DNA of 62,626 nucleotides, filler included, from Bipalium vagum (lineage: Eukaryota), in NCBI GenBank assembly GCA_037834085.1. It is 3 parts of 3 records of this genome, joined end to end, with 100 filler letters (N's around TTAATTAATTAA, not from the genome) between each part and the next. Parts side by side here need not be neighbours in the genome. Positions count along the whole stretch, not along the records: positions 1 to 15,945 come from JBBMKC010136747.1; 2 more parts are not named here. One strand, given 5' to 3'. The position numbers and the translations under genes were made by a program. The notes beneath the pieces are model-generated. The model saw only the letters and a list, made by a program, of their open reading frames with translations. It had not been told where the DNA came from and made no database searches. Positions within the stretch are counted from its first letter, which is position 1; each line of letters starts with the position of its first letter. Shown here piece after piece: positions 255 through 62,626 of the stretch.

Positions 255-740
255 TTCTAGTAGGTGATAGTAGTTGCAAGATCAGGAAAACTTTGAAGAG
301 CTTTTACACAATCTGGTTGTTCAAATCTGGTTATATCATTAGTTTTTCACACCCTCATTACTGATAATATGCTCCTAAAATTTTATTTCCTTCTGTATAA
401 ATGAGCACTTATCTGGTTCATTCGTAGACCTACTGATCTGATTCTCATCAGCACTTTGTTTAAACGTTTGTAGTACTCTTCCGGGCCTTCAAAATGTATT
501 ATAATGTCATCTAGATACACGACAGCTTCTTTCATAACTCTCAGGATTCTGGTCATCAAATCTTGGAATGTTCCTGGCGCCACAACAATTCTGAATGGAA
601 TACGATTGAAACAGAACTGACCTTCTGTCTTCAAGAATGCTGTCTTTTCCTCTTCATCAAATTTTATATAATAATAAGTTTGTCCGAGGTCGATAGAGCT
701 GAAATAAATGGCTGAAATAAATAAATACCTTAGAATATAA
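255..740 (-). mobile_element. Ty3/Gypsy LTR-retrotransposon reverse transcriptase fragment (degenerate)
   Basis: ORF 383-754 reads YFSSIDL..YY.I..EEKTAF..GQFCFNRIPF..APGTFQDLMTRIL..VVYLDDIII, the Gypsy RT motif series including YxDD. Broken frames continue downstream (QPDCVKALQSFPDL). Confidence 0.9.
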
Positions 741-1019
741 TATATCTTGTACATATTTAGTTTTTTATTTATTTTTAATTCGTCAAAAAGTTTAATACTA
801 AATGCAATCTACTGTATCTTTAATTGGATCTTCATTTTTTCTATCTGGTATCCATTCAAATATTTCTCCATAATTATTTTTATTAATCATTACAAAATTT
901 TTTATAAAATTTATGAACTTAATTTTAAAGCTACATTAGAAAAAAAATAAGGAAAGTAATTTTTTGTACAGCTGTATTTCTTTTTGCTTTTATGTCCTCA
1001 ACTTCAATTTCAAAATCTA

Positions 1020-3358: not shown

Positions 3359-6300
3359 ATGGAAAATTCAGAAACTGTGGATGATTTATCAGATTATAAT
3401 TGCACATTTGAAATGTCATTAAATGATATTTATTTAATTGCGCTTAAATTTTTCAAAGGTAAATATTAGATATTCAGGTATTTTTCAATATTAAGTAAAA
3501 TAAAAAATAAGGATTTTTGCTTATTTTATTTACTTATCTATAGTAAATAATTAAGTTAAAATTATTTTTGTTTATTAAGAAAACAAAGATAAGGCATTTC
3601 ACTTGAATTATGCTAACAAAATAAAAATGATTTCTTTATCTCATCATATCAAAAACGGACCGATAAACATAAAATCTATGCCAGAAATTGGCGTTCTTGA
3701 TGTAATAGGTAAAGATATAAGGTAATAGCATAATGGAAAGTATTATTATTGTAAATGATTTAAGGAATCAGTGCCAAAATTTAGGTAATATATCTAAAGA
3801 ATCCGCTCAGCAAGAATTTATTGAGTTTTTAAAATTGTGTTGTCCGGAATTCAAAGGGTTTTTGGAAGCAAAGATTAAACAGATTGAACTAGAAGCACAT
3901 GAGAAGTTATTTAAATTAATATTGCCAAATATTTTGTTTTTCAATTTAGATATGAAAAGATGAAGTTAGGGAAAGAGTTGTTAAAAAAAGAACAAGAAAA
4001 GGTTGCTCGAGATAAAGCTTTCATGCAAGCATTGGTTTTGGAAAATCAAAAACGAGTTGATGAAGAGTATGTCTATTAATGATAATTGGAAATTTCTCTA
4101 ATTTCATTTATAAATAAAGTTACATTGATTTTTTAAAATTGATTAATTAAACAAAATAATCCATGCCAGTTTTTTCATTTTAAATAAAATAAAATTCTCC
4201 AAGAAAATGTGAAAAAGTGATCTGTAATAGTTTCTCGACAATTCATTCATTCAAATATTGATTAACGGAGATTCTTACTCCCATTTCCTATCCTTTTGCT
4301 TTTTCACGTTCGAGACCTCGTCCGTTGGTGTGATCGCCATCTTAGTTGAAAATAAATCTGAGATACCGGGATTCGAACCCATTCGAGAGGGCCTTTTACA
4401 AGCGATATGGATTGCTCGACCACTGAGCTACATCCCCCAACTAATTTTCAATTTATCTCACAATCGACATTTGAAAGTGATACTTTTCAAATAAATATCT
4501 TTTCTTCCGAAATTTACATATAAAAAATATATAAATTTTCTTTCTCAAGTTTTCAAGTACGTTTATTATTATCATTCGTGAAAAATAAACACAATTATAG
4601 ATATTCTATAAATTATTGTAAAAATATCGAATTTACATTTCTAATTTTACTTTTGTGAGAAATATATGGTCTACCGACGAAAATATTAAAAGTTAAAGTA
4701 GATTTAAATGTTTGACTTACTCCAGATCCTCAAAAATGCATGTTATTATTGATTTTTAAAAGTAATAGTGATACGAAACAATTTTTATTGTCAGTAGTTC
4801 ATGATCAAGGATTATTGTGGAAATAATTTTTTCAATTAATAAAGATTATTATTAATATTTGTTTGTTGGAATGATTATTGATTATTTGATTAATACATTA
4901 AATACTATTTCTCTCTGTTTAGTCCTCTGAATGAGTGTAATTTTTACTTATTGTTTTCTGAAGTCTGTTTTATTAATTTTATTTATAATTATTAAAAAAT
5001 CGATTTTGTATATACAAATGTGTAAGGCGGGCCAAAAGTGACTTAGTTCACAAATGCATTTGTTATTCTTTTGTTATGATTATTTATCAATTAATATTAA
5101 TGTAAAATTTGAAAGTACAAAATATAAGACCAAGATTAAAGGATAGAAGATAAATTCTCAAATAAAGTCTGATAAAATGTGCCGTTTTACTTTGAAAATT
5201 AGAGGAATCTTTCTGAATCTAAAATTCACAAATGACGTAATCGTTTCAAAATTTCTGCAATTTGGATCAATAAAAAATGAAAAATGATTCACTTGGGTAA
5301 CTTGAAATATTTTGACATGGAAAAGACCTCTGGCTTTTTAAAATCCTGAAGAGTAGCACAATTTAGAGAATATCATGTCAAATGCTAATTCAAAAAATCG
5401 ATTTTCAGTAGATAAATTGGATCATGTTTTTTTGACCGAAATGTCTATCAAGTCTCTTTTTTTGACCGATCTCAACTTTTCATGTTGATATTAAAGAAAT
5501 GAATATTCAAATAATAACCAGTGTGGTAATGGGTATTCCATCCTATTCAATTATGTGTTTAAGGGAAAACAGACTGTTATTACTATAATTATTACTGATT
5601 GTGTTTTATGGCGCTGCTACACAAAAAATTGCATAAATTACAATAGATATTTTTCTAATAGAAGAAATTCCTTTTTTTAGAAATTCAAAGTACCTCTAAA
5701 TAAATTTGTCCATTAAAAAAAGCAACACTTTTGCACCATCTTTTTTTCATATTTCTTTTTGATCTTCACTTAGTTTATTTATCTCTTTTTCATCAATCTT
5801 AGGCAGGCCAGAATGTGATTCGTTTCAAGTCTCTTTTTTGACCGGTCAATCGTATCAAGTATGTTTTTGACCACGACGGTAAAAAAAAACATGATCCAAT
5901 AAATTTTCTATTAAGTTTATTTTTAATTAAATTAAAATGACAAAACATGTTTAATTGAAAAATCAATTAAAGTTATTGAATATTAGATATTATCGGGAAT
6001 TACAATTTTGATTTAAGTGTCATTTTGACCATCTGTTTAAAGTTTGAATGAATCTGTCATAATTTGTATGTTTTCGTGGTTTCGCTACTATAAATATTGA
6101 TCTATATGGTAAAAAGCATTTTAACCTTATGTCCGTGGCAAAACATGGAAAATAGTTTTTAAATTTTGTGTAAGCGGAAGAATCGTCCTATCTCAACACA
6201 AAAAATAAGTTTAAAAATATTTGAAAAAATTATTAGATAATAATTTTTCACACTGTATGGAATTATTATCATACGACGAGGATTATAATTTAGAAATCAT

Positions 6301-9300
6301 GAACAAAATAATAATAAATGAATCAATAATCAATACATTTAAAGAGAATTGAAAGTCTGAAAATGTGATAATTAGATGTTTTTAAATTCATATTTTTTGT
6401 TAGAAAATAATCATGGTGAATATTAAACCAACTGATGTTATAGCGACCTCACAAAATTCATTTATAATTTTTGTACAAATTACAATTCAAAAATTAAATA
6501 TTATTTAAATAAAAAGAAAGGGTCGCACTGAAATCTATTTTATTAATTATGTTAATAATAGAACTTATCAGCCTGAAATTAATTAATTAACTGTATTTAT
6601 GAGTAACATATCCATAGAAATAGATTGCGATCAGTAATCAATCAACAGACATTAGCTCAATTTCACGCATATGCTGTACAGCAACATCCGGACGATATGA
6701 AGCTGGTGAGACCATTATTTTCGCTTGTGGCTTTTGAAAAAATTGACGGAAATTAATATATCTAGCAAGAACAGTTGATTGCCCAGTTGCAGCAGCACCA
6801 TTTCCATCAGTACATGTTGGCAATTTATGAAATGAATAGAACGGAAAATCAGACGAATAATTCTGAAGAAGTCATCACAGATCCCAATAATATGGAAGTC
6901 GACAGCTCGTTTGTGTACGAAGTCAACAACAACATTCCTCGTGAAAGCGAAATAAAAGGTGGATGTTTACTCATAATTTTTATTTGGAAAAATCTGTATT
7001 TTTAAAAAAGTGTGATTAAATTATGAAACTTTAAATATTCACGATTTCATTAATTTTTGTTTATTATCGAAATAACAATTTAATTATATTTATTAATGGT
7101 TATTATTAAAAATATTTGATTTATTGATGTTTTTCATTACAATTTTCACTCATTCCAATTAATGACTTGTGAGACTACTTTTGTCTAAACTATTTACAGG
7201 CCCGTATCATATTTACCAAATCGCAATCGTCCAATTGATATTTTCACAATATTTTTATGCTAAGTAGTGACACTTTAGAGATTTAGTTCTATTGACTTTA
7301 TTGAAAATCGAAATAACTGTTTTATTCAATTTAATAAATTTTTTAAAAAATAATCGATTTATTGATATTTTCCTTAAATTTGACTCATTTAAAAAACTGA
7401 TGGTTTGTAAAATGGAAGTTAAATACTAAGAATGATCTTTTGATCTGCAAAAATCCGTAACTGCTTTAATTCAGTTGCAATCGTTAAATTCTCAAAACAC
7501 CTCTTAAAGCCACTTAAAACTGTCAAGTGATTACTTCATTTTGAAACAGAAAAAAGTTAATCTCTATTTGTTGATTTGATTATTCCTTCCCTCGTTCAGT
7601 TGAATCTTCTAGTATTGTGTGCTGCATCGTTATGATCAACAATTTTCATTATTAAACAATTATCAGGATGGTTAAAGTGAGAAATAAAGTTCGTCTGAAG
7701 AAAGTCTCCCAAAAGAAGTTGATGGAATACCAGAGACTTGAGTTAAGATATTAAGTGATTCACGTTTAGTTCTCCGAGAAATCGAAAGTTCTTGGTGGAG
7801 GATTATGGCAAAATTGGAAAGGTCTAAAGGAAAAACAAATGAATTCTTGTGGAATACAAAACAGCAGAAAATCGAGTATTAAGAAAAAAAAATTTCAATC
7901 GTTAAATTAATTTCTTAGATTTTTTTGTTTCGTTTTATATTTGTGAGCCGCCCTGGTATGGAAGATCGAAGCGTGCACTTGAGATATATTTTACTTCTCT
8001 ATTATCGGAAAGACAAATATACATCACAAGCTTACAAAAAATTTGTATGTGTTTGGTGAGACTGCAATAAAAGAACGCCAATATCGGAATTGGTTTGAGA
8101 AATTCTAAAGGGGTGATTTTTCATGGCCGTCCACTGGATATCAAAGAGAAACGTGACATTGGAAAGAAGCTCAACGAATCACATGCAACCACAAAAACAA
8201 TATTAAGCATGTGGACAACGTTAAAAAACTCGATTTATGAGCTCTTTACCAATTTAAAGAAAGTCACATTAGACAAAGCTTTGAAATCTGCCATTTGCTT
8301 ATCAAATACAACATACTTCAATTTTGATTTTCCACAATAATGTTCATTTAAAAAGATCATACTACAAGTGAGAGGAAGCAGCTCAGACATTGTCCAAGAT
8401 TGATAATCATCAAAAGAAAGTTGTGATATCCGTTCGGAGGGATTATCAAGAAATAATATACTTAAAAATTTTGTTAAGCAGGCAAAGAATTAATTCTGAT
8501 ATTTACCTTGATGATGATCAGTTGACAAAATTGAACACGAAATCCAAGTTAAACACCCAAAATTGGCAAACCATAAAGGTATTGTTTTTCATCATGACAG
8601 TTAAAAATCACATACTTCTCTGGATGTATTACCATATAACTCTGACCTTGCTCCTTTTGATTACCATTTGTTTCGCTCTATGAAAAAGTTTTTAAATATT
8701 AAAACTTTTACTAATGAAATTGATGTTCAATCCGATTTGTTGCAATTTTTTCCGATAAACTCCAAAGGTTTTATGAGCGAAGAAATTCTATTTTTAAAGA
8801 TTTTATATTTTTGTAGTTTATATTTGGTTTGATATTAAATTGGGCAAAACTAAAAATCATGATTTCTTAAGTTCATTTCTGAAGGCTTTTTCAGTCAGCA
8901 AATATTAGAAATTGTAATAATTTAAAAATACTCAATATTGTAAAAATGAGAATAAAGTCAAAATTTGTCGGGGTAGTTGAGAAAAAAACTAAATCGGACA
9001 TTCACATGATTATCTAAAATCGAAAGTATTAAGGACACATTTTTTATAGGGAACTTGTTACAATTTTTTCTTAAGTCTCGTTACTTTTCGCTTACGAAAA
9101 TAATCTGGTCATTTTTCTCTGGAATTTATTCGATCACTTGCAAAATATTATTATTTAATGATATCTGTTAGAGATAAAATCTTTGCGTAATGATATATAT
9201 TTATTGATCTGATAATATGGGAAATAAAATGTCGATAAAGATCAGGATTAAATTGCGATTGGTTTATTATACTTGTTGAAGACATCAGCTTTTCATTATT

Positions 9301-12300
9301 ATTATTTTCCTTTATTTTCAAACTAATATTACATTTAAAACTTCACTTTTTTATTTTTTGTTCCGATTTTCTTCAAGTTAACTGTGACGTTCACCAGAAA
9401 TTATTCATTGAAAACACTGCATTTTCAATGCAAATACGTTCAGTTTTTAACAATTTAAATATCGATTGTTCTATGATTTTGTACTCCTCGCATATTACAT
9501 GCTTTCTTAACAATTTTATTTTTACATTTACATTTTTTGTGAATTTAAAAGTTTAAAAAGTACTAAACCTAACAGTCATTTATCTCGTTATTAACAGGTT
9601 CCTGCCTATTTTGAATAAAACAGTCATTTATTATACATTATGAATATAAATAAATGTTTTTCTTTTTACTTTTATGTTTGTAATGAGGCTGCTAATCAGA
9701 CCATGGGAATTTTTAATTTTGGAGTCATTTTTGGAGTCGTGACTTTATTAATATTATAATATTTAAAATAATAATTAATTATAACCAATTATAAATAGTG
9801 CTATTATTAAAATTATTGATTTAATGCTTTGTAAAATTTTAATAATTTTCTGAATAAAGGAAAAAATTTAATCAGTTAAATATGATGAAAGGTATCGAGA
9901 AATTGGTAAACTGTCGTAGAGAATCGGCATGGATGGTAGATAATGTGTTATCACATGAATTTACAAGAGAAAAGTTAAAGAAGCTTTGGTTAATTGCATT
10001 AATGGTGCTGAAGTTGAAAAAGAGAAGAGTTGAGAAAATTGTAATGTGTATGAGAGATTGAGGGTATCATGGAAAAAAACGGATGAAATATGAGACAAAA
10101 ACAGTCAGACTAATAGGAGTGCAGTTTTAATTTTATAAATTTTTATTGGTTTATTTAAAAATTAGAAAATCATTAGAAAATTAAATACATTCAAATATGG
10201 AAAATCATAACTCAACCGATGTAAAATAAAATATTGAAAATAATAATGATAAATTATAATTTAATAAAGAAAGACTTTGTGACAAAAACAATTATTGGGT
10301 CTCGTCAGTGCTTTGACACAGGAACATGTGTTTTACGAAAAGAAATAATGTCATTCGTTAAGGTATAAGTAATTAATTGATAGAAAATCATTTCACTTTG
10401 AGATTTTTTCAACAATCCAGTTACAAAATTGAACCCTCGCTCGACAGTTAAAAATTTCTAAAATCTTTTGCAGACTAGTTTCGGACTCAAGACTGTTTTC
10501 TTTATTCTGAGGATCCTTAGTTAGGACAAGCAGTGGTTATAATCTCTTTAATTGTTTATTGTACTCCATATCTGGCAAATAGTTAATAAAAAAATTTAAA
10601 AAGTGAAAAAAGTTTTTTAATGTTTATTTATTCTCGTTATATATTATTAGATTTGTTATCCTCAGACTCCGATTTGAGTGTAATATGATTTATTCATCAC
10701 TAAAATATTGAATTTTGAATCTGGTCTTCATATTTTTCTTTTTGATTTTTTTAAAAAATTTTAATTATGGACTTTAAATTATTTTTTACTTTTATTCGTG
10801 AAAGATGAGCAATATTTTCAAAGTTACTTTTAATAAATTATTACTATTTTCTTTTTCATGCAATATTATTTATTTTTAGTGTATGAATAGTATTTCATGG
10901 TTCTATTTACAAATTGAGATTATCGAGTTTACGACAAAAATCAATATTTTAATAAATTTTTCAACTATATCTTGGAAATTTGTTTGATTTTCTTTAAAAA
11001 ATTCAGAATGGCATTCTCTTTCTCTCTTAATTTTAGGAAAATTAATATTTTATTCAAAAAAATTATCTGATTATGTCTTAAATCTCTCAGAATGCCAATC
11101 AATGAACAAAATCAATTTTTAAGTGGCCTTTTTATTTTTAAAATATATTTACCTTGCGCGGTTTTTGTTTTCTTTTTGAGTTTTTCTTTATCATAATGGA
11201 ACAAAATATTACCTTGGCAACTCTATATTATCTCTGGTCAAGAATGATTGCCAATTCTCTTCAGGTTATCTTTGAAATTCAATCGATATTATTTTAATTT
11301 CATGCTTCAAAAAAAAGTATATTTCTCCGAACCCAGATATATGAAAAACATGATCAGTAGAATATTAAGTGCACAATCTTGAAAAGTTATATTTCGGGAA
11401 TTTCTTTCATTATCCATCTCATAATTTTCATTTTACACTGCTGAGATTAAAATATATATGATCTTTTCAACTCGAAAGTGGACCATGAAATCATTAATAA
11501 TTTTATCAGTGACTGATCCAAATGAAAAATAAATAACTGTTGTGACCAAATTAAAAATAGTTTATTCTCCAGAGTTTTCGGAAAAGAATTTCACTAAAAT
11601 CATTTTCCTCTTGAATTTTTCAGTGAACAAATTATTTTTTAATTAATCAATAACAAAAAATTTTCAAAACACTACAAGCATCGAAATTAAAACTTATTAT
11701 TGATTAATTAACAATTACTCATATATTTGGAAGTTAAATAAATATTTATAGGGATACCTTTTAAAGAAATAATGTTTTCTACCTGCTCCTCTCTTTACCG
11801 AGATTGATAATATTAATTGAATTATTGATTATTTTGTGCTATTATAAATTTGAAGTCTTTGCTACTGTCATCAGAGAATGGAGATTTGAGTTCCCACGAT
11901 CAATCGAATTTATACAATTCCAACGCCGTCGAGATTTGGTGTCAAGCGTCGATCAATGAATTCAAGGCCAGTTTTTCATCGGAGCCCGACAGCGTAATGA
12001 AAATTGGGTCTGGAGAAGTTGTGACAGTCAGTTATTCAAATGTCAACTATGATCATGATGAGATTCCCGATCTTTTATAGATCCGCGTTCCAGGCAGTTC
12101 AAACAGTGAATATTTGATCTGGCAATTCGCCACCGATGAATGTGATATTGGATTTGGAATTTCCGTGTGCCATGACGGAACTAACGAGGAAGTGGAGCCG
12201 GTGTTGAGGCGAGACAGTCACAAGCAGGTCTATTGCGGTCGATTAAAGCTTATCAAAGACGCCAAGGACTCAGAACAGCCCTTCTTTCTTTTGCGGTTTG

Positions 12301-12362
12301 ACAACTCCTACTCTCTATGGCGGCACAAATGGCTTTATTACCGTGTGTGCTATTCCGATTGA
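3359..12362 (+). CDS. ACBD3: Golgi resident protein GCP60 / acyl-CoA-binding domain protein 3 (ACB - coiled coil - Q-rich - GOLD)
   Basis: Exons 3359-3458, 3580-3721, 3765-3905, 3950-4066, 6618-6705, 6766-6958, 11875-12026, 12081-12362. All introns are GT-AG and phases are consistent (1215 nt). Motifs: IYLIALKFFKENKDKAFHLNY..PEIGVLDVIGKD, INQQTLAQFHAYAVQQHP..QLQQHHFHQYM, SVMKIGSGEVVTIRVP..LIWQFATDECDIGFG..FDNSYSLWRHKWLYYRV. AATAAA lies ~12 nt after the TGA. Confidence 0.95.
4342..4466 (-). repeat. tRNA-Ala(CGC)-derived element, copy 1 (pseudo-tRNA inside an inverted repeat; in ACBD3 intron 4)
   Basis: Minus strand GGGGATGTAGCTCAGTGGTCGAGC...GGTTCGAATCCCGGTATCTC has intact A and B boxes, a disrupted anticodon arm and an insertion before the T arm. 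It is homologous to 19890-20006. Confidence 0.75.
5419..5897. mobile_element. non-autonomous DNA transposon, probably Merlin family
   Basis: TIRs GGATCATGTTTTTTT...AAAAAAAAACATGATCC. Flanks gATAAATT/aATAAATT form an 8-bp TSD with one mismatch. Subterminal TCAAGTCTCTTTTTTGACC repeats are present. GG termini plus an 8-bp TSD fit Merlin. Confidence 0.65.
7958..8790 (+). mobile_element. mariner transposase relic
   Basis: N-terminus MEDRSVHLRYILLLYYRK, then GRPLDI, KKVVISV..DYQEIIY, VFHHD and PYNSDLAPFDYHLFRSM. Many frameshifts. Confidence 0.85.
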
Positions 12363-12639
12363 GATGTACTTTCAATAAAGGAATTTGTTGCTTTTCTTCA
12401 TAATAATAAATAATAAATAATGATACGTCTTTTCAGGCAATTGTGATTTATTATGGTCCTCGTTTGTATAATGAGATTTGTGATTTTAAATTTAACTAAG
12501 ATGTCATCAACATCGTCATGTTTTATTGTGGGAAGAGGTTTTTTCTTTGTTAATAATTTGGTTTTCATGTTTAGGTATTTGTAAAAAATTTTTTTTAATA
12601 ATATCCGAAAAACAATAAGGAATCTAATAACTAATTTAC

Positions 12640-14330
12640 CAGTGGTCTACAAGATGGGAATTTTAAATTTTTCTTTGAGCTATTTCTATTAATTTTATAC
12701 ACATCCTAATTGGTTCAATTTGAATTGATAATTTCATACAACAGGTAACAGTGCATTTAAAAGGTCTAATCTGAATGGTTTAAAAATTTCTTGTAAGTTA
12801 ACATGTTCAAATGGCTTGTCAGAAAAGGCTTTGCTTTTGTTAGACAACGCATGAGCCACTGTTCAAATCTCTCATATGTTGAACATCACTTTTTACCAAA
12901 AAAATTCTACTGGAATATGACAATCGATAGATGCCGGTATAGGTAATGCTTTCAATACCAAATACCGAAAGCGAGTTTTATGAAACTTATTTCAAAACCA
13001 GAAAATAATATCCCTATAATTGCAGACAAAATTATTAATCTTTCTGAAGAATTTTTTGGGTTAGCCAAGGACACATCTCTGTACACCCTTGTAAAAGCAT
13101 GTTAGAGATCGCAATAGGATCTAGATTAGTTATATTATATTATAAATTAATTATTAAGACCGCAAAAGAGTCAGAATAAAAATAATAATCAATTAAAAAG
13201 TACATCAAAACAAAAAGGGGCAATTAATTATTATTTTCAATGGATCTAATCTTGACAATGGCGAACATAAATTGCCAAGATTAGATCAGGGTCCTCAAGG
13301 AGGGACCGATTTAGAATTATCGGTCTAAAAAGGGAATTGACATTCCCCATTAATCAAGCTGATCTACGACTGATTAGTCGTCTGATCAGAATGGTATATA
13401 AGGAAATGGTCCGCAGTGGATTGCCAGAAAATTTCAGAGAAATTTGCGTCAGAAGCCACGACTTTTTCTTGCAGTTAGTAATCATTCTTCATGCTCCCTC
13501 TGCGACAGGAGCTCAAGTCTGGTTCTGTGCTGTTAGGGGTTTTTTAAGCGAACCGGATTGGGGTCAGCAAACCACCTTTTGGACCTGTCGTCATCACAAT
13601 TGTCGTGAGTATCTTCACTTTCTTTTCTTTATTTTTTTAATTAATTAACATTTAATTATTTGATTTTTATTATTTAATTGATTATTACTATTTGATTTTT
13701 AGTCTGAAAACATTCGATTGCAGACATTTTAGTGATTATTTGAGAAATTTTGTGATTTTTTGTTATTGTTATTTCAGCAATAAAGTTGTCTTGATTCATT
13801 CATTTGCGTACACGTATTGACAAAAGTGAAGGGGTCAGTAAACTTTGCGAGCTAAGTGTTACGACAGTGTTCATAGTGAAATAATATCGTAACACATTTA
13901 TATTAGAGTGTATTTGTAACTGTTGGAAGCATATAAAATTATAACTGATAACAGTGAAACTCGACATTTTTTGTTGCTTTTGGAAAAAAACATCAGCAAA
14001 TAGAATATTAAGTATCCGCTCAAGAATATATTGATTTTGACTCTAATATAGGAACTACTGAATACTTAGTAATTTCACTGGTTATGGAAAATAATAATTG
14101 GTTATCTGATTCCGAAAAGAGCAGCAAAGAAATGACTATTGTTCATCAAAATGTTTGTCCAAAAGTAAGATAGTTAAGTGAAGCTTTGAATACTATTTCT
14201 AAAATTTTCTAATGTTTTCACTAAAGCCGAATCTAAAAATATCAACTAATTTGTTTGTCTTTTCAAGGCAGCATTTAGAGTTCAATGAAAAAAAAATCAA
14301 CCAATAATAACAGATTTTTTAATAAATAAA
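12640..14330 (+). mobile_element. pogo/Tigger (DDE_1) transposase relic, interrupted by an LTR-like element
   Basis: RKALLLLDNA*, FLPKNSTGI*QSIDAGIGNAFNTKYRKR before 13100, and ICNCWKH resuming after 13894. Outer boundaries are approximate. Confidence 0.7.
13100..13894 (+). mobile_element. solo-LTR-like element, copy A
   Basis: TGTTA...TAACA ends, hairpin block 13243-13389, TATATAA 13395, GTGAGT donor-like site 13605 and AATAAA 13779. A ~190-bp block is shared with 32541-32725. No clear 4-6 bp TSD. Confidence 0.65.
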
Positions 14331-14759
14331 AATTTATTTCTAGTTCCAATTAAATCTAGTTAAAATAATGCCATCACACATTCCTTATAATATCGAAGTG
14401 ACTTGAATATTTTCTATTTTGCTCATGAAGTCTTTTCAATATTGCGCTTTCTATAATGCATTTCTCTTATATTTAAATTCATATAATAGACATTGATTTT
14501 CGGCCGTTCTCATTTTCTCTTATCCAGAGTTTTATATTATTAAAATAAAGTTTTATTTCAATAGATGCTTACCAATCCTAATATTATAAATCAAAATACT
14601 AATTGAAATCTTATACTTTTGCTTTAAAGTTTGTTTAGAGAAAAGTGACCATACTTTTCTATCAACCCGATATAAAAAAAATTTCCATCTATTAAAAATA
14701 TAAATTTACGTTTCTATGTACAAATTGGTAGTAATATGCATTGTAAATAAAGGAAATAT

Positions 14760-15540
14760 TAATACTTTTGAGACATTTTCATCAGTTAGGAAGAGTCAGT
14801 AGAAGTTCTGGAAGTTCCTCATGAACTGACTCCAGAAATGACAAAAACAAGAGTTTCAATTTGTAAAAAATTGATGGAAAATCCACATGATCTTCGTTTT
14901 TAAGGCGAATTATCAGTGAGGAATAGAGATGATTTTATTATCGGTATTCTGATAATAAAAATCAGTGGGTGGATAAATGTGATCCAGCTCCTGTGGTCGT
15001 TAGAAGAGAGCGGTATGAAAAAAAAGTCCTTACTTTTTTGATGGTGGAATATTGATGGCATAATCAATTTTGAAGTGATTACTGATGGACAGACCATGAA
15101 CGCTGAAAGTATTGGAAACAGCTTCAACAACTTCATGATATTCGTCAATGGCAAGCGAGTAATTATACAACAGGATAACGAAAAACCGCATAAAGCAAAA
15201 CGAACGCGCGAAAAAATAAGACTTGGAGGTTGAACTTCTTCCTCTCTCCAGCATATAGCGCGGATCTTGCTCCATTCGATTATTACCTATTCAGGTCATT
15301 GTCTCACTTCTTACGCGGTAGGCGCTTTGAAAATGATGATGAACTTAGAAGTGATTGCCAAGAGTTCTTTGATTCTAAAGAACTTACTTGGTATCGGAAA
15401 GTCATAGAAATGTTGGCAGAATGATATATAAAGACCATAGAGTATGAAGAAACGTACTTAGATGAATAAAATATTTTAAATTTTTTATTATTTATACAAT
15501 TAATATATTAAAAAACGAACTTTTTTCCTAGACACCATAA
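14760..15540 (+). mobile_element. mariner transposase relic
   Basis: VPHELTPE, KVLLF*WWNIDGII, LLPLPAYSADLAPFDYYLFRSLSHFLRGRRFENDDELRSDCQEFFDSK. Confidence 0.9.
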
Positions 15541-15945
15541 TGCAACAGTAAAACATTTTGATAATTTATTTTGTACAATAAATGATTAGATTTTAAATAC
15601 GTACATCTTGAAACTCAACTTTATAATGAAAAGTTTTGAAAACATTCAAATTTTTAACTTTTATGTAGATTTGTGGAGACTACGAGGATCAGAGCCGACA
15701 GTGACAATCACAACATCACCAAGCACAGTCTCAACCAATCCCGACAACCAACAGTTATCATAAACTATTCCTTTATTGTGTTTAACAATTCTCTTTTATT
15801 GTGTCTGAAAATTCTCCTCTATGATATTGTGAAATTTTAATTGTTTTATTGTGTTTTTATTTAAAAAGAGAAAAATATATGTATATATCTATTAAATGTA
15901 TTTTGAAATAATGTAAACCAATTTTGACCGAAATGAAGTGAGAAA

Positions 15946-16045
15946 NNNNNNNNNNNNNNNNNNNNNNNNNNNNNNNNNNNNNNNNNNNNTTAATTAATTA
16001 ANNNNNNNNNNNNNNNNNNNNNNNNNNNNNNNNNNNNNNNNNNNN
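15946..16045. other. assembly gap with six-frame-stop linker (44 N + TTAATTAATTAA + 44 N)
   Basis: Exactly 100 nt. The same structure occurs at 44451-44550. Confidence 0.95.
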
Positions 16046-16397
16046 GTGGAAATAATAAATAATAATTTTGATATTTCGTGGAGAGAAAAAAATTTGAAAA
16101 TTGATAAATTTTCTCTCGATATCCACGATTGTTTATCCACACAGAATGCCTCGCCTGTGCCATTAGACAGCGAACAACTTGCTCTCCAGTATTTTCTTTT
16201 TACGCTAAAGCAAACTTCTCCTGCTCTCTTTTTCATTTATTCATATAGTAACAATTGAACTAACATTTTCGCTCGGCCAATATTTATTATTTATTTTTTA
16301 TAATTTTTATATTAATCATTATTTATAATGTTTATAATATAAATTCATTTTTCCACAAATTTAGCTTCGCCTGTCAATACAAAAATGTGTTTCCATT

Positions 16398-17951
16398 AGG
16401 GTGTCCCAAAATAATTTCGTTTTTTTAATAAAAAGAAATCAAATTATCAAAACTTGTTAAATACACGTCAAATATCAAAGTATAGACACCATTGTGTTCG
16501 ATGGTCTTCAGCCATCTTTAGATAGTTCTTGAATTCCACTAAGATGTCATTGTTTCGATTTGTAAGAGAAGAACTCCAAGCAGGAAATTTCCACATTGTT
16601 AACATTACTAAAATCGACCACAGTAGGCGCCAAGCTGGATGTGATAAAACGCACACATGACCTTTTTTCATATCGTTGCTCTTTAAATACAGGAAATGCT
16701 GTTTGCCCAATGTTTTACCATGCTGGTTGTATTTACACATTATTAGTTCATTTATCTGTGCCTAGTTAATTTTTTAAAAATTTTAGAATGTCAGAAGAAA
16801 AATTTATAATACGAGGCAACATAAATTGCTTAGAGAAATTTACAAATTTGGTCTAGATGCTGATCGTTCATAACGACACATCAATAAAGCCTTTGGAAAG
16901 GATATCATTTTTTTCGGTCACATAATAGGTTTAGGAAGTTTAGTAGTGGTAATTTTGACATCAAAAATCAGCCAATAGATGGTCCTCCGACATTCATTGA
17001 GTGTCTGTATCGAACCGGATCCACATAATAACATCAAGTGACCTTTTTAAAATCAATGTGTCAGTCATACACTTGCTTACGTTATGTGAAGGAAGGTCAA
17101 AAATTTGACATTCCGATCCGACACCAACTGACAGACTTTGACCGTCAATGCCGCATGGATGCATGGCATTACTATGGAAAAACTGTGGTTATGATTAGAT
17201 TGACAAAGTGGTCAGCACAGATGAAAAATTGTGTATGGTACTCAGAAGAAACTTGGTAGACAATCAGATAAAATAATGGTTTGTGTTTTGTGGGATCAAA
17301 GCGCAATCACAATATCAATTCTGAATCAAAAATACTGAAAGCCTAAGATAAAAAGGGTACAAATACACATCCACCCCGAAAGAGGTTCGTTTATAATAAA
17401 TAAAATTTTGCTTATTACTGCCAATAAATGCAGCGAGTGACAGTTGTAACTGCCAAAAAATGATCAAAATTCACCAATGCTATTTTTCGTCATGACAATG
17501 CCTCACCTCAATTTACTAACACTAGTCGTAAAAACTTTTGTATTTGACATGGGAAGTTCTCGCACAATCTTATTCTCTTGATCTGGCAGCGACAGATTAC
17601 CATCTATTTCGGACCTTGCAGAACTACTTGAATATAAAAACAATCGCAAACGTTTTGAAAGTTTTATTTGGTGACTTTTTGGCAGTAAGTCTTTTATAAT
17701 CAAGACACCAATGATCTACTCCTTCATTGGAATTATGTACCTCAAAACTATTGTGATTACATTAATAATTGAAGCACGACATTTTCCTACATTGCTTCAA
17801 TATATTTTGTTATCAATAAAATTGAGCGATTACTTTGTTTCCAACCCAATATCAAACAGCCTGCGTCTGTATAAATAACATATTTATTGTCCTGTTGGAT
17901 ATTTTGAATATTTCATATTTATAAGAATGTGTTGATTTTTTGAGACACCCT
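16398..17951. mobile_element. Tc1/mariner-type TIR element containing a nested degenerate mariner (~16780-17850, +)
   Basis: Outer TIRs AGGGTGTCCCAAAA/TTTGAGACACCCT. The inner relic has MSEEKFIIR, IFRHDNASP, and the mariner-type right end TACTTTGTTTCCAACCCAATA. Confidence 0.65.
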
Positions 17952-19889
17952 TTATTTTTAATCAGGGCTTAATACAATTTTATTGGTCAAAAAACATTTT
18001 ATTGGTCAAAATAAAAAATAATAATAATATTATTATTGAATATTATTAATAAAACCTGTTGCATTTTAACATTTATTTCCACATTTTAAATAAATATAAT
18101 ATTTCGTGGAGAACGATGCATCTGCAGATATTTCCAGGCTCAGATGTACAATTAATTATTCAAATTAATTCCATCTTTAGAGACATTTATAATTTTAATT
18201 TAATGGTTTATTAAAAATAAAAATTGAAATATTCAAGAATATTTATTTCCTTTGAGAGAAATAACTTTGAAAATCAATTGAGAAGAAAGGCAAGGAAATT
18301 ATTGTCTTTGATAAATTTCTATGGATATGGTTTTTTTATTTTATTTTTCTGAAAAATAAATTCCCAAATATAATTAATTAAGTATTTTATGGCTGGCCAT
18401 TTAATTGATAAATTACAACTTCGTTGCCTCTGAATAATCGACTTTCCCAAAATGGTCTTTCAATTTGAAATTAATTAATTTATTAATGACTTTGACAATG
18501 AAATAATTTAATTTATATTTTCAACTTGTTTTGATTGTTTCGAAAATATTTTTTGAGATTTATCTTTTATATTGTTAAAAATGATATACGGTAAAGCTTA
18601 AGTTTGAAAATTGTGAAATTATTCACTAAAAAGATATTGGTTAAATTTTTATATTTTTTAATTATTTAATTATTACTATACTTCTATTTACGTGCTGCAC
18701 CCAATAAGTTGTGAGACTGACATAGAAAGATGTAAAGAAAATATCTTTAATTATGCATATGAATCGATATATATTGATGGATCAATAAAATAATCTTTGT
18801 TTTAATAATTTATGCATTGATTTTAATTTAGTGACAACAATCCAAAAATGTCTTTACGAAAAGTATTATTATTTACTATTGTTGTATGTTGATTTATATT
18901 TGTTCCTAAAAACTTAAATAGATTTTTTATATTACTTGATACAAAACTCAATTTATAAACTTGTAATTTTTTAAACCGTAATATTTTAGTGATTTCCAAT
19001 TTATAATTTATTTTCATTAGCCTAGAATAAAAATTTTCTTAATAAATTCTAAAAATTTAATTAATTATACTTAGTAATAACCTTACCAATCTATGTCAGT
19101 ATAGATGACGTAATAGTGCGTTTGTTTAAATTTAATAAAAATGGGATGTATTCTTCTTCATTACATATTATATTGCTTATTTCACTTAGAGGAGGACTGA
19201 TCGATACATTTATTACTAAATTTTGATTTTAAGAAATCATTTCCAGTTTTAATTATTGTTATTCTACTATGTTTAAAATAAAAAATATTTTTTAATAATA
19301 AATAAAACATTTTGTTTATAAGTTGATTAAATTGAAAAGTTTAAACAAATACACTAATTCAAATTTTTTCCGAAATACAAATGTATATCCGCAATTTTTA
19401 AATATGGAAAAAAATCTGATAAAATATATTAAATTTTTTTGTTCTCTTTACCTTATACTTTTTTTAAAAGGCCTCAATATTTTGAAACAAATATTGTTTA
19501 ACATTTAAAAGTGACTCTGTAAAAGTTTGGTCGCATTGATGTTTGATAGTTATTCCTGAATAATCTTAATGCACAGGCTGTTAACGTATGTTGTTATTTA
19601 CTGAGAAGACCATTCATGTAATTCTGGCACGTACCGCTACTAAAACAATTGAGTTTTCGAAGTTCCAAATAAAAAATAATAAATTACTTGGAAGGTTTGA
19701 CATGGAACATAATTTTATTTATACATATAATGAATGAGTTACTGCATTCATATTTGACATCTTAAGAAAAAAGGGTATGGAAACTTAAAAATAAAAATAC
19801 GGAAAAATAAAGAATCGTGTTTTTTTTATTTTAAAAATTATAAAAAGATCCCACTGTGATCCTCATTAAATGTTTTTAATTAATGGTTG

Positions 19890-20006
19890 TTAGTTGAAAA
19901 TTAATCGGAGATAGCGGGATTCGAACCCGAGACCTTCACATGCGCATGGACTGCTCTGACCCCTGAGCTCCATCTCCCGACTAATTTTCAATTTATCTCT
20001 CAATGG
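19890..20006 (-). repeat. tRNA-Ala(CGC)-derived element, copy 2
   Basis: Minus strand GGAGATG-GA-GCTC-AGGGGTCA-GAGC-A-GTCCATGCGCATGTGA-AGGTC-TCGGGTTCGAATCCCGC-TATCTCC. Acceptor, D and T arms fold but the anticodon stem does not. Flanked by an inverted repeat. Confidence 0.75.
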
Positions 20007-20589: not shown

Positions 20590-23500
20590 TCTCACCCCTC
20601 TGAAGTTATATACGTGTTGTGAAATGACTTCTGCGGAATTATAAGTCTTCCGTTTTTGAACCAAAATATCTCCGGCTTCGGTCGTCCAGCAGCAGAACAT
20701 ATCAGTTCAAGGATGGCGCCTTCGTTGATCTCGACATTGCCATATCGAGGTATAGATTCACTTCTAATCAGAGCAGCTAGAATGTATATCATAAATTAAT
20801 GGTTTATTATTAAACATTTATGATTCGATCATTAACATTCTATTGTTTTCTAAGTGACCAAATGAAGAAGGTTCCACTTGAAATAAAAAAAGTTGGTTAT
20901 TGCAGCGTCAACATTTGCTATGTACCCTTTGAATGTAATAATACTAATCCTTTTTTAAAGAACACAGAGTGTGAAATAAATTTGATTTTTTACTCTAAGT
21001 CGTACAATAATAATAAACCGATTCTGGATGATCCACCACAAAATATAACATTACAAGAAAGATCCTAATAAGGTAATGCTTAGTGACCGTCACTAACCAA
21101 GTTAAATGGATCCTTGTGAGTTCCATTAAATCTTTCGTCTTGTAAAGAGAGGCCAAAAGATTCGGAAATTGGCTGGAAGTTGTTGCCAAATCCATCATCA
21201 AGTCATAATATAATATTGTCAGGCTCCTATTTATTTATTTATTTTTATTATATTTCAATATTGATAATTTGTCCTCCTTTAATATTCGACTTTTCACACT
21301 ATAACTGGATGGTAGTGTTAGGGGTATGCATGTTTCTCTCGCTCACATATTTATGATATTAGAAGTATTAAAGTATTATATACGTTTTATTTGGAAATAT
21401 CTTTGTTTAAGTAAGTCAATATTGATTATATTTATATGTATTGTTCTCATAGTTTATTTAAAATAACATATTTATTTACAGGAAATAATATGGAAATCGA
21501 TAAAATGCATATTCGCCACTGCATGCTGTTCTTCCTCCATCCAATGAAAACAGCTGCCGAAGCAACCAGATTACTTCACAAAACATATGTTGATGAAACA
21601 ATAGAGAAGAGTGAATACCCTTAATGGTGATAAGCGGTTATATGGATTTGATAGATAATGAGCGAGCTGGTCGACCACATGAATTAGATTCCGATAATTT
21701 GGAAGCGCTTTTGCAAGAAGATTGCACTTAATCGTGTGCAGAACTGGCGAGAAGATTGCATGTGAATCGGACTACCGTACTTCGGCGGTTGCATCAGTTG
21801 GGGAAAATTCTTAAAGAAGGAAAATGGATTCCTTATGAATAACATTTTATTCACTGTTACTGTGAAAATTAAATAGTTAATGGATTATTCTGCAGATCTG
21901 TTTTTTAGATAACCAGCCCTATACGAAAACACTGTCCATCCTTAAGGCAAAGGTGAAACAACTCTTACCGTCAATCTTTCGTCAATTGTATCTATCATAG
22001 ATTCTACCATTAATACCAATCATCCTTCATTCTCATCTCTCCTGGGAAAACAGCGGATATTTCGACAAAAACCCCAATCCAATTCGTGACGAACATTTCA
22101 CCGAAAACGTTTTAATGTATAAGATCACCTTCAACTTGGGTATACTTGAATCATTAGTAAAAACTCTTAAAGCTTAATAGATTTTCTTACACTTTAACCG
22201 ATTTTCCTTTTCACAAACGATGAGAGAGACCGATTATCTGAAACTGGAATAACAATTATTTTCAGAATTAGGACTATTTGACAAAAAGAATAATAGAATC
22301 GGAGAAAATTCCTGATTTTAAATGGCGAGTAATTTTATGGGAATTTTATGTCTTTCCCTTGACTCGTGGTCGTTCTCCTCGCTCTTGACATCGGGCTCAT
22401 GTCAATGGACTTTGTGAATCTCAGATTTTTAATGGTAATTTCCTAAATGGAGGCGAGCTTGTCGGTGACGGACCGGCCTAGTTTAGTGGACTCAACAAGC
22501 GATTTGTTCGCCCTGACATTGAGCTCTGTAACGATGTGGGAAATGATGGTCAAAGAAAATCCTTAGCTTTGAGATTCATTTCAAAATTCATTTGTTTTTT
22601 CGAAGTTTTCTTGACTTTTTTATAATGATTTTGTTAAAATAAAGTGCAAAAGAATCTTTAATTAATAAATAAAATCATTATTATTTTTTGGCGCCGTTTT
22701 TAACCTTGAAATAAAAAGGTTAAATAATTAATAAAAAATTTCTTTTGAAAATTTTCTTTCAAAAACTTTTTCTCACAAGCGAATTTTTTTAAACCAAAAC
22801 AAATTATGATGAAGTATAAAGAAGAAAAATCGGTCATTGACATTTTTGAAGGATAGTCATTTACCTCTTTTACAGGGGTCTCGGGTGTAGTGTATTGAAA
22901 GCCTTGCAAAATTCGAGAGGAATATTACCTTGCTTTGGAACCACGATATTTTATGGAGCCCAGAACTTTAATAAATATTCAATCATTCCTTAAATGGCTC
23001 CCATATTGTGGTACTACAATTAGGTCACACTTTGCTTGAGCTTTCAGATTTCTCCTCTTCTTTCTTTTTTTGATTATTTGTTTTAATCTGTTTGAATATT
23101 GATTAGATGAACAATAATTAGATTAAATTAGGGCCATAAAAACCGATCCATTAGTCCTTTTGAAGAATTATATAAGTGAAATTAATTGATCTTTTGTAAA
23201 AGAAAAAGTAAAGTAAGAAAAGATTAATTAAGATTATTACTGGGATTCTCAGTGTTGCTTTGAAAAGGTAAGGAAAGGTGAAAAAGACATTATACAGAAC
23301 CTTCCAGTTAACATCGACAAAGGAAGTCTGTCTTGGTCTGTATCATTTATGAAACAATGTTCAGCTTGACAGTATTGATCACTGTTCTATGGCCTCACCA
23401 CTCACATAATCAATATGGTCCAGGAAAGAATAAAAGCCCACCAAAAAATAAATAAAAATAAAATAAAACTTACAAATATTGGCATTGAATCTGGTGATTC

Positions 23501-31949: not shown

Positions 31950-32800
31950 ATAATTTGTTCACTATTTAGTGTATCAAATTTAAACCTGACTCCAACTCTT
32001 AAATGGTGCAAAGTATTAACAAACAGGAAACCAATAACTTTTATTTATAACACAAAATTCAAACGAAATCACAATGATAACAGTAACACAAAAATCGTCA
32101 AACTCAAGAGAAAGAGATTGTAATTGTTTTAATTAATCAATCAAACATAAAAGTTAATAATATCGAGTCAAGAAACACAAATAGATTTTTAAAGTTAATC
32201 AACAATCAAACTAATATGAAATAATATAATCAAATTAATACGTAATAATTTTTAACCAAAAATAAAAATAAGATGATAAAAAAAATAGAATAAGCTTACG
32301 AGTTATATTCGTTTAAGCTTCCCGGACTATTAGCTGAGCCTTTACAGTTGTTCAGAAATACCCTTTGGTGAGGAACTCAAACACAATCACAGGCAAGATA
32401 TCATTTTAACAAAATACTTGGGTTTCAGATCTGGATAGTCTTCACGATAATCTGTCTTCAACGATAGTTTACAACAAATAAGGTCTTCCAAACCACGATA
32501 ACTGTTTCTAGTTAAGGGTGAAATTATGGAGAAATTCTTCTCCTTATATAGTATTTTGGTCGACGACTAATCAGTCGCAGACCAATTTTATAAATGGAAA
32601 ATGTCAATTCCCTTTAAGGATCATTAATTCTAATTCGGTCCCTACTTGCGGACCCTGATCTAATCTTGGCAATTTAGGTTCGCCATTGTCAAGATTAGAT
32701 CCCAAAAGAAATAATGTATTGCCTTTTTTCTTTTTTAATTACCTTTTGTAATTTTTAATTAGCTAAAATTATTATTTAATTATTATTCTTAGTATTATTA
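31950..32800 (-). mobile_element. solo-LTR-like element, copy B (diverged; ends not resolved)
   Basis: 32541-32725 is the reverse-complement homologue of ~13218-13403. Downstream on the minus strand it has TATATAAGG, a GTAAG donor-like site at ~32299, a T-rich tract and AATAAA at ~32046. Confidence 0.6.
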
Positions 32801-34401
32801 TTATTATGATTATTACTATTATTATTATTTTTGTCCTTTTATGCACAATTTCAAAATTATTATTATTATTCTTATTATTTTGTGCACAATTTTACAATTT
32901 TCATTTAGGATGGATGGGTGCTTAGGGAAAACCAAACAAATTTATATATTAACTATTAATTACTATTATTTTACTATTATTTATTAATTACTAATTTTAT
33001 CAATTTTTATTTAAAATATTGAGAAAATATAAGAAATTCTTCCACATTATTTTGCAAATGAGCAAAATAAACTTTAAAACACTTTTGCTTGCTCCTCTTT
33101 CCTTTTTGCTATTAAAAAATTCAACCAGCGGATCAGAGAATAGGGAGGAAAAAAGAGTCTACTTTGAAGACTCACATTGAAATGCGATCAATCCAATTTA
33201 AAACTGTTAGAATTTTTAATTTTTCCGGGAAAAGTTGGCATTGTTTTTCTCAGACAATACAAAAACCATTGTCATTATTTCCATGTTTTATCGAAAATTC
33301 AATAATGAAAAAACCCTTCGTATCATTTGCTAGGTCTCAATTAAGTTAAAATACTTTATTATTCACAGCTGAAATAATTAATTAATAAAACGACTCTTGC
33401 CTTGGGTACAACTGGGAAGCAAACAATAAGAAAATTGGGAAATCAATTAGCTAAGTAGGAAGGGGAAAAAGAAGGAAAGTTCACTACGCTAATTTTACAC
33501 TTAAACTTTCTGCTAAGCAGACCACGAGCTGATTACTTTCCATTCGATGTCAGAGATATATTAAAATGAAAACGTCTTTTTCTCTTTCATTTCATCGGGT
33601 ATTTTAAGAGTTTTGCCCTTAGATCTAATTGGTGACAGCTACTCTGTTTGTAAGTATTATTAAATCAAAAAATTCAAAGCATGTATTATTTATATTTCTT
33701 ATAAAATATTTATTAAATATAATGAGTGTAATCATATCATGGAAAATTTTAATTGTTTTAGGTTTGTATATAAGAAATGTCGTTTTTTTGCATTTTTGAA
33801 GACCGTTTGTAAAATAAATGAGATCTCACAATGAAATAAATAACATATTAACAAGGTAATGAATGACATTTTAATAATATTATTGGTTGCAGAATTCAAA
33901 TTTAACCTTGCCATATTTAAATTTTGCTGAGGTTGAAAATGATGAAATGAGGTTTATAATTCAGTACGAATTCCTACTTGGAAATAATGTGTGTTGATTC
34001 TGATGAATCTCATTTTGACAAATAAAATGTTGTATAAAACCTTTTTCTCAATTATTTTTGACAACTAATATTATATAAAAACGATATTTTATATGCACCA
34101 ACCTAATAAGAAAACCATAATATTTATCAATTTCATTAATAAACACGAAAATATTAATATATTAAATGGCAGTTAAAAAAACTGATGTCTTTCCTTTATT
34201 GAAATAAATGTGCCTATTTTTCTTTTAAAAAGACATCATTTTAAATTTGGCAATTAATTTTCGCTACTTCCAGATTCTACAAAGAAACGGTTAACCAAAT
34301 TGCGAAAATTAACATCGAGGCCGATTTGTTTAACTGTTTGTCTGCAATGAAATCGGATTCCATTCTTGTGCGCGCAATTTGAAATTTGCTCATTTCGATA
34401 A

Positions 34402-34608: not shown

Positions 34609-35402
34609 CCTCTTTCTGGAGCAATTCATAATGTTCAAGACCTATTATGTTGTAATTTTGTAAATCATGCACAAATCGTTAAATACTTTACTTGAGAATA
34701 GATTGATTTCAATTTAGTTCACTTGCATAAAGTGTGATTTTGTTTAATGACTGATGTACACTTTTTATAAGTTTTACTCTATATTTATTTTGAGTTCACG
34801 GTATTTTTAAAGGTGAATATTGAAGACTTAAATTACCAACAAATGTAAATTATTTAATCTTAAAAGATTGTCATTTCATACAAAATGAGTTTTCATGGTG
34901 CCAGGAATGTAACTGTCTTAGTTTTAAGTTATAAATTATGTTAATTGACAATTTTGGACAAATCTCTAAAGTTAAGCAGTTACTCATGCTCAATTTGAAA
35001 TAATTTCATTAGTTATAAATTTTAAATGTTATTTTTTAAGGTTAATTTCACAATTCAACAACATAACTTGAAATACAAGCTTTGTTGTGACAGCTGATGT
35101 TTACAGTTTAAAGATATTTATTTTTAATTCAAAAATTATTTCAAAAACACGAATGTTAAAATGTAATATTTAAACAAATAGTTAAAAAAACATTTTATAT
35201 TTAATTTTTTAAAAAATCAATACCATACGAAAACAGTCTGTTTTTTTCTTAGTTTAATATTAAAAATTGATATTTAAAAACTTTCTATGTAGCTTTAAGG
35301 AAAAAAATCAGAAACTATGAGAACCAGTCTTGGAAAATGTTAAATATTAATAATATCATTGATAAATTTGATTCAATATTTAATTGATCAAATTAATTTA
35401 TA

Positions 35403-36149
35403 ATGATGGAAGCCAAGCATATCAAAATTCTTACAGCTCCACAATTAATATCTAAAGTTTGGTGGTCGAATCTAGATAAATTTCAAAAAATATTCTTGAT
35501 TTTGTTCCTTATTTTGTATGTTCTGGCTACACTTTCTTCTAGTTCTATTATGATTATGGACGATATTTATAGTATTACAATGTTTTTGATAAGTTTTATA
35601 AAAGAAAAGAATAAGATCCCGGCACCTTATAATATATCATTGACAGTTAAAAGAGGATTTTGGAGAACCGAAAGAATTTTCAATTTTCCAAATAATACCC
35701 AAGGTCTTTCAGGAATCGAACTTGAAAGGCATTTAAAAGTTGGATCAAATTTATGGGATACATGTCAAGTGCTGTCATATAGAGGACATCCTTGTGAGGC
35801 TGCTGCAATACTTTTTATATTGTTTGGAATGTTACTGTTTTATTATCACTGTACTACAATCATTTTGTTTCGCATCTTGACAATTTTGAATTTGTCAATA
35901 GGAGCATTTTTCACAATGATAGGTTTCGGGTTGATGTTAGCCTCCTCACAAGAATATTTTTATTGTATATCAGAATTAAATTCTGAATTTCATGGAAAAA
36001 ATGGATATTACTATGGAAGAAACTTTCAATCCGTATTAAACTTCTCAACGCTTAATTTTAAGCTAATGACAGTAACAGAATTAATTTTTCTTTTGCCCAT
36101 GATTTTTATAGGGTTATATTTAATGACCTTTAAGAGAAAAAATTTATGA
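35403..36149 (+). CDS. intronless 4-TM protein, claudin/PMP22/EMP superfamily-like
   Basis: 248-aa ORF in AT-rich DNA with four hydrophobic segments. GFWR plus two Cys in loop 1 (claudin W-GLW-C-C-like) and YYYG before TM4. AATAAA downstream. Confidence 0.7.
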   Translation: MMEAKHIKILTAPQLISKVWWSNLDKFQKIFLILFLILYVLATLSSSSIMIMDDIYSITMFLISFIKEKNKIPAPYNISLTVKRGFWRTERIFNFPNNTQGLSGIELERHLKVGSNLWDTCQVLSYRGHPCEAAAILFILFGMLLFYYHCTTIILFRILTILNLSIGAFFTMIGFGLMLASSQEYFYCISELNSEFHGKNGYYYGRNFQSVLNFSTLNFKLMTVTELIFLLPMIFIGLYLMTFKRKNL

Positions 36150-62479: not shown

Positions 62480-62626
62480 TCAATAAAAGTGAAATTTTCT
62501 AGTAATTCTACAATGTATGGATCAGACTCGTTCACATTCATTTCATTTAGTCGAACACAAATATTCTTGCGTTTCATGAAATTATCAGTCCATTGAGAGC
62601 TCGCGACAAATCCTCCAATCTTCATC
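62480..62626 (-). mobile_element. pogo/CENP-B-type HTH transposase fragment
   Basis: GGFVASSQWTDNFMKRKNICVR matches the F.AS.GW...FMKR..L..R motif. Truncated by the window end. Confidence 0.7.

Follow-up and report, generated by a model that had tools for sequence, protein, structure and literature searches.

The window, that is, the whole 62,626-nt stretch of DNA analysed here, contains two solo LTRs of an abundant retrotransposon family (copies A and B), which share a block of conserved and covarying hairpins ending at the TATA box. The element type is ordinary; the structured U3 module with its repeated, covarying stem-loop is the new part. Within LTRs, U3 usually evolves fastest and has the least structure. 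The hairpins are tentatively interpreted as sense-strand RNA stem-loops, which would lie at the 3′ end of the full-length RNA and be bound by Gag or a host protein, a reading based on sequence to which a probability of about 0.45 is assigned.

Copy A is 841 bp long (13054-13894, plus strand, with the 5′ end at 13054 or 13055). Its boundaries are defined by the rise and fall of depth in contigs of the public run X1 and by the unlike flanks that follow 13894. The 5′ end reads TTTTGGG and is without a TG start, and the 3′ end reads CGTAACA and includes one arm of an 8-bp inverted repeat identified by folding (13857-13864 with 13887-13894). The target-site copies, AATT on the left (13050-13053) and CATT on the right (13895-13898), match at three of four positions, or at four of five when the duplication is read as 5 bp. 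The insertion is hosted by a decayed pogo/Tigger-like DDE_1 transposase (12732-13053, plus strand), with a PF03184 match (E 4.4e-4) of 20.3 bits that lies below the cut-off of 22; in frame translations, protein-like text resumes past 13894. Copy B (31956-32938, minus strand) is 983 bp long, has TGTT...AACA ends and is bordered by an exact AATT/AATT duplication. Six TG..CA pairs occur near its ends, of which only this one comes with an exact 4-bp duplication and none with one of 5 bp. Both LTRs are located in AATT target sites (13050-13053 and 32939-32942), pointing to a possible preference for palindromic AT 4-mers. No PBS, PPT, gag-pol or other coding region adjoins A or B, and scans of two frames of A against Pfam gave no match. 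Given their LTR ends and target-site duplications, A and B are very probably solo LTRs. An LTR-like element with the block in a U3-like position had been proposed in an earlier, sequence-only reading, and this is borne out by the ends, the duplication and the TATA/AATAAA layout.

The family is likely of the Ty3/gypsy type. As an internal region was never linked to the LTRs, this assignment rests on the ends and the 4-bp duplication, which appear to suit either Ty3/gypsy or a non-autonomous dependant. BEL/Pao elements have target duplications of 5 bp or more. Copy A ends in agreement with the CGTNACA motif given for rGmr1 and Sushi in Table 3 of PMC3601003, and the order of TATA, AATAAA and GT-rich sequence in both copies fits the LTR layout in the same source. 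More generally, TATA, AATAAA, a GT-rich stretch, a short duplication and, in B, TG..CA ends are shared with the LTR models of Ty3/gypsy elements (Metaviridae), but these models have U3 as the least conserved part and place conserved stem-loops in R-U5 (Benachenhou et al. 2013, 2009; PMC3601003, PMC2664473). The LTRs of A and B show the reverse, with a structured and conserved part upstream of TATA and an R region that cannot be aligned. Giant gypsy elements of planarians (Burro/GYPSM1), compared here by description, are present in thousands of copies in AT-rich genomes (PMC6431247) and would come into question as the source, should the host be a planarian. A Ty3/gypsy-type reverse transcriptase fragment is found at 386-808 (minus strand; RVT_1 E 6e-11; best PDB match Ty3 reverse transcriptase, E 3e-14); it is the only reverse transcriptase fragment identified in the window and was not linked to the two LTRs.

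Several other classes of element were considered. The flatworm ta-TRIM (PMC4558846) and the animal Helenus elements (PMC10886601) are described with duplications of 4-5 bp and 4 bp, respectively, and with many solo LTRs. However, A and B differ from both in their length (0.84-0.98 kb), their Pol II-type TATA layout, the lack of a tRNA-like part and the lack of any observed two-LTR form. Helenus/TRIMp3 was rejected, as neither copy has a B-box, an Rfam tRNA match or an ARAGORN match. A retrozyme or hammerhead element was likewise rejected, as a pattern search detected no hammerhead core on either strand and no Rfam ribozyme was matched. More broadly, a search of Rfam, ribozyme models included, had been suggested beforehand; no family matched, and the 4 and 2 matches in the LTRs are at chance level. 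At the gathering score, Rfam returned for the whole window only a tRNA match at 19906-19977 (minus strand). This match is part of a tRNA-like repeat present in two copies (4342-4464 and 19890-20004, 81%) for which ARAGORN reports no gene.

The window is eukaryotic, with a GC content of about 27%, and a scan of 121 frames of at least 62 aa identified exon-sized pieces of genes for a nuclear receptor, Ig, Vps26 and GOLD proteins. The nuclear receptor DNA-binding domain is divided over two exons (58150-58383 and 59636-59887, minus strand), and a possible ligand-binding exon was recognised by eye at 49264-49683, where Pfam gives no match. An intronless, hydrophobic frame of 250 aa at 35397-36149 (plus strand) was blank in Pfam and homologue searches and has a weak likeness in Atlas to amastin/claudin-type membrane proteins. 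In addition, the window holds fragments of mariner (Transposase_1, HTH_48) and Tc5 transposases (8372-8680, 21415-21621, 38530-38823 and 62425-62625), a single-copy, perfect 14-bp inverted repeat with a 12-nt spacer (49924-49963), and dispersed repeats unrelated to the LTRs (73-89%; 1896-2045/39040-39189, 41370-41486/53354-53467, 29114-29223/62341-62453 and 5420-5465/30760-30804).

Contigs of public runs were placed on positions 12600-14400, yielding 6109 contigs from X1 and 91 from X2. The unique left flank of A is present in X1 without a difference, so that X1 may stem from the source of the window itself; it was used solely for viewing other copies of the family. The family is abundant, occupying many insertion sites with sharp ends, as follows from the 6109 X1 contigs and from the variable flanks past 13894, where 118 contigs diverge into unlike sequence (agreement 0.46). 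Summed depths in X1, which are not copy numbers, amount to about 22-35 for the unique flank, rise to about 11,000 from bin 13027 (13027-13087) and reach 358,000 in the block; R has 6,000-19,000, the part near the 3′ end has 104,000, and values beyond 13941 are below 100. The block and the 3′ end are thus more widely shared than the middle. Among the 15 of 105 X1 joints listed, three contigs run from 13404 to 13784 and three from 13403-13405 to 13521-13525; different middles flanked by a common block and a common 3′ end are expected where the R regions of subfamilies have diverged. In one X1 contig, 13894 is joined head-to-tail to 13052, a junction that could reflect tandem insertion, a circle with two LTRs or a TRIM-like form.

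The block itself recurs in inverted orientation, as had been observed for a segment of about 190 bp. The alignment of 13195-13404 with 32747-32541 extends over 210 bp with 81.4% identity (E 1e-50). No third copy occurs within the 62,626-nt window, and an exact-pattern scan of metagenome contigs, prokaryote genomes and viral contigs revealed no further ones. The similarity stops at the TATA box TATATAAGG, an inferred promoter element that is identical in both copies (13395-13403 in A; 32542-32550, minus strand, in B). The absence of clear similarity past this point, also part of the earlier claim, was confirmed for three post-TATA segments, with 299, 117 and 107 of 300 shuffles scoring as high as the actual alignment. 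Upstream of the block, the 5′ end and the AT-rich part of the two copies align weakly (2/300 and 1/300 shuffles, respectively). Both copies of the block fold unusually stably (z -5.19 and -5.20), with none of 200 shuffles being as stable in either case. In windows of 80 nt the excess folding is centred on the block, and z -3 is reached by 2 of 149 background windows. The R regions of both copies fold no better than shuffles. A weak hairpin just past the TATA box of A (13407-13423, plus strand) has G.T in three of its six pairs, and a 6-bp hairpin at the corresponding place in B (32543-32528, minus strand) has an unrelated sequence.

Four stems are found in the block. Stem 1 (13243-13287 in A, plus strand; 32657-32701 in B, minus strand) contains 17 bp, an A.C mismatch (13255/13275) and an 11-nt loop, and the claim that B has the same pairs and the same mismatch holds for all 17 pairs. 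Stem 2 (13290-13307, plus; 32637-32654, minus) consists of 5 bp with an 8-nt loop. Its changes are indeed confined to the loop, where two of eight bases differ, and the five pairs are identical. Stem 3 (13359-13389, plus; 32556-32585, minus) has an inner and an outer part of 6 bp each and contains the two compensatory changes that had been reported for it, at 13359/13389 (C-G to T-A) and at 13362/13386 (A-T to G-C); an additional change from A-T to G.T in the inner stem had been overlooked. A fourth stem of 6 bp (13332-13347, plus; 32597-32612, minus), absent from the earlier description, has two G.U pairs in B. An alternative stem of A (13304-13325) is broken in B.

The substitutions between A and B are distributed unevenly over this structure, affecting 5 of 68 paired and 18 of 93 unpaired sites (Fisher p 0.04), and none of the 44 sites in stems 1 and 2 has changed (p 0.0007). 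The consensus fold of the two copies, the only ones on which it is based, comprises 39 pairs, of which 2 differ by compensatory changes, 3 by one-sided changes and none is broken. When changes were placed at random, at least two compensatory pairs were obtained in 0.06-0.5% of simulations, a figure that applies to stems picked after inspection of the data. The loops are conserved as well (1 of 11 positions changed in loop 1 and 0 of 4 in loop 3), which is also expected from sequence-level selection or from a recent swap.

Stem 2 belongs to a repeated unit, consisting of a stem of 4-5 bp, a loop GCAA-N(1-2)-AG and an AT-rich tail GA(A/T)T(A/T)AG. The unit pattern, defined from stem 2 and scanned on both strands of the window, gives four matches, at 13110, 13161, 13294 and 32650; each of them lies within one of the two LTRs and has sense orientation. 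In A, unit 1 (13106-13122, plus strand) has a 5-bp stem with loop GCAATAG, and unit 2 (13158-13172, plus strand) has a 4-bp stem with one C.A mismatch and loop GCAAAAG; stem 2 represents unit 3 of A and the hairpin unit of B. The presence of two units in the upstream U3 of A was matched by none of 5000 shuffles. Units 1 and 2 do not occur in copy B, where 426 of 1000 shuffles are as good. Of the 20 cells in the four units, 18 pair, and three of the five pairs change on both sides while the loop is constant; the corresponding covariation score is reached by 4 of 500 shuffles, a fraction that does not represent a probability and comes from a set of four (n = 4). Further variation is seen among the 40 of 138 X1 variants listed, which are marginal frequencies and do not include the partners of 13362 and 13370. 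The pair 13109/13119 in unit 1 is T-A in A, but X1 contigs mostly have C at the first position (45 contigs, 90% of depth) and G at the second (38 contigs, 81%), so that this is probably a further compensatory pair, as judged from marginal frequencies for which phase is not given. At 13169 in unit 2, 86 X1 contigs (93% of depth) have a G that would pair, and at 13295 in stem 2, 123 contigs have a G as in copy B, giving the GCAA loop.

Selection on structure, as proposed in the sequence-only reading, is upheld insofar as the pairing is conserved, and the covariation has become stronger with the repeated unit and the extra pair in X1; either RNA or DNA may be the carrier of that structure. The covariation is derived from two genomic copies and four aligned units. 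With respect to strand, all three one-sided changes between A and B leave G.U on the sense strand (chance 1/8), which mildly favours sense RNA, although the strand signal is mixed. The mismatch of stem 1 is a wobble on the other strand, as had been pointed out, but this does not extend to the three one-sided changes. The opposite strand of stem 1 also folds better (-20.4/-22.0 kcal/mol, compared to -17.3/-17.5 kcal/mol for the sense strand), and the sense-strand mismatches, A.C in stem 1 and C.A in unit 2, count against the RNA reading, as does the end of the block right at the TATA box, a position suited to a role in the promoter. The RNA role is the weak step of the preferred explanation. 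On the other hand, a constant loop on variable stems would fit shape recognition better than it fits double-strand sites.

According to the explanation in terms of RNA stem-loops, integrase would insert full elements, from which recombination between the LTRs would then leave solo LTRs, in line with established LTR biology. Sequence upstream of the TATA box enters RNA only from the 3′ LTR, so the stem-loops would be situated at the 3′ end of the RNA. There, the fixed GCAA-N-AG loop on exchangeable stems would be bound by Gag or by a host RNA-binding protein, and the bound stem-loops would serve packaging, localisation or 3′-end handling. Through recombination between RNAs packaged together, the block would be retained or exchanged among subfamilies that differ in R-U5. 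For Ty3, both transposition and localisation have been described to depend on 3′ UTR sequence (PMC11381356).

A rather less probable reading is that the same solo LTRs carry inverted repeats that act in DNA, as a palindromic cis-regulatory array of dyad sites or cruciforms in front of the TATA box. This would agree with the position of the block, of which about 150 bp lie directly upstream of TATA, and with the end of the similarity at that box. Furthermore, stems 1 and 2 are invariant in sequence, and both copies contain three occurrences of GATTAG/CTAATC and two of TGACA; a heat-shock element was not found in the LTRs. The closest known system has a comparable layout. In the LTRs of maize Sireviruses, a palindrome-rich, hairpin-forming region precedes a conserved TATA box, and the LTRs of the families Ji and Opie have contact nowhere else (PMC4728375). 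A and B have in common with this system the predicted hairpins before a conserved TATA, the otherwise different LTRs of the families concerned and a proposed swapping of LTR parts. However, Sireviruses are plant Copia elements, and each of their LTRs contains about seven copies of a single near-perfect palindrome whose arms are conserved (PMC4728375), whereas A and B reside in an animal host, have a 4-bp duplication and contain stem-loops with a conserved loop and covarying stems as well as one 17-bp stem. Membership of the Sireviruses is excluded by the animal genes in the window (nuclear receptor, Ig) and by the different repeats. Plain double-strand sites would not predict stem changes on two sides under a fixed loop, nor does the lean of the one-sided changes (3/3) toward sense-strand G.U favour an action in DNA, although both leave a cruciform version conceivable.

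It is improbable that the structure arose from template switching at quasi-palindromes during reverse transcription or replication, combined with a recent spread of the promoter by recombination, in which case selection, if any, would act on sequence only. Template switching is reported to be able to create and maintain perfect stems and apparent compensatory changes (PMC8794818), and even outside the pairs the block retains about 80% identity, in contrast to R, which cannot be aligned. Nevertheless, the A.C mismatch of stem 1 was left uncorrected in both copies, the loop motif has been kept across paralogous units with diverged stems, and not one of the 39 pairs is broken.

The sequence downstream of the TATA box bears on the question of whether the units are themselves mobile. 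In both copies, the order of TATA, donor, T-rich tract and AATAAA is present as had been described. In A, a donor-like GTGAGT, 201 nt past the TATA motif, opens a candidate intron (13605-13778, plus strand) with a T content of 55% that ends in TTTCAG, directly before the AATAAA poly(A) signal (13779-13784) and the GT-rich bases following it. In B (32040-32299, minus strand), a donor-like GTAAG at 32299, 242 nt past the TATA motif, is followed by a tract of 54% T and by AATAAA at 32045, but an acceptor directly before AATAAA is absent. Since GTRAG occurs 0.89 times per kb per strand of the window, the single occurrence in each copy is at chance level. Moreover, none of the 15 of 105 X1 joints listed matches the loss of an intron at 13605-13777. 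Foamy virus LTRs also have a splice donor upstream of the poly(A) signal, and an RNA structure has been proposed to set poly(A) use there (PMC3694450), but the donor-like sites of A and B are putative and their predicted accessibility is not lowered by U3. The predicted unpaired share of the donor is 0.14-0.15 without U3 and 0.24-0.48 (A) or 0.14 (B) with U3, values that derive from long-range folding and are unreliable for this purpose. A foamy-type poly(A) switch that hides the donor is thus unsupported by these predictions.

The suggestion of a portable promoter that carries variable cargo and gives rise to a small spliced transcript is not supported, as the units are solo LTRs with target duplications and the variable part is R-U5, with Pfam blank in two frames of A. 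That a unit of 0.85-1 kb is itself mobile in this manner (LTR-only, TRIM-like or Ginger/MITE-like) is most improbable. In its favour, no internal region is seen, X1 includes the head-to-tail contig and several contigs with the block and the 3′ end but another middle, and A has a donor and an acceptor before AATAAA. Against it, the donor is at chance level, B is without a matching acceptor, and the terminal inverted repeat is at most about 4 bp, as only 8 of 20 terminal positions match in each copy. Short internal or read-through transcripts are, moreover, already on record for solo LTRs, namely those of ta-TRIM, which start short or spliced transcripts (PMC4558846). Ginger and MITE-type DNA transposons carry long terminal inverted repeats, and the same 8 of 20 matches led to their rejection. 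Quite improbable, too, is the far-reaching version of the RNA reading, in which a self-contained, shape-selected RNA module, made up of a long stem and repeated stem-loops with the GCAA loop, is swapped as a unit among unrelated LTR subfamilies. Such a module would act at the 3′ end as a signal for packaging or as a poly(A) switch, and would allow LTR-only units with variable mini-exons to be mobile in spite of having no internal region.

The papers searched gave no account of the block, nor of U3 hairpins of this kind in LTRs of flatworms; repeat libraries such as Repbase and Dfam may already contain the LTR of A and B. Little is known about cis signals located at the 3′ end of gypsy RNAs in animals. 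If the block is promoter DNA or a mutational by-product only, it amounts to a note in repeat annotation. Otherwise, an LTR family with thousands of copies, in which stems covary under a fixed loop, is a natural data set in which to look for a 3′-end signal. The block furthermore offers a test of whether the Sirevirus design of palindromes before the TATA box has arisen again in animals.
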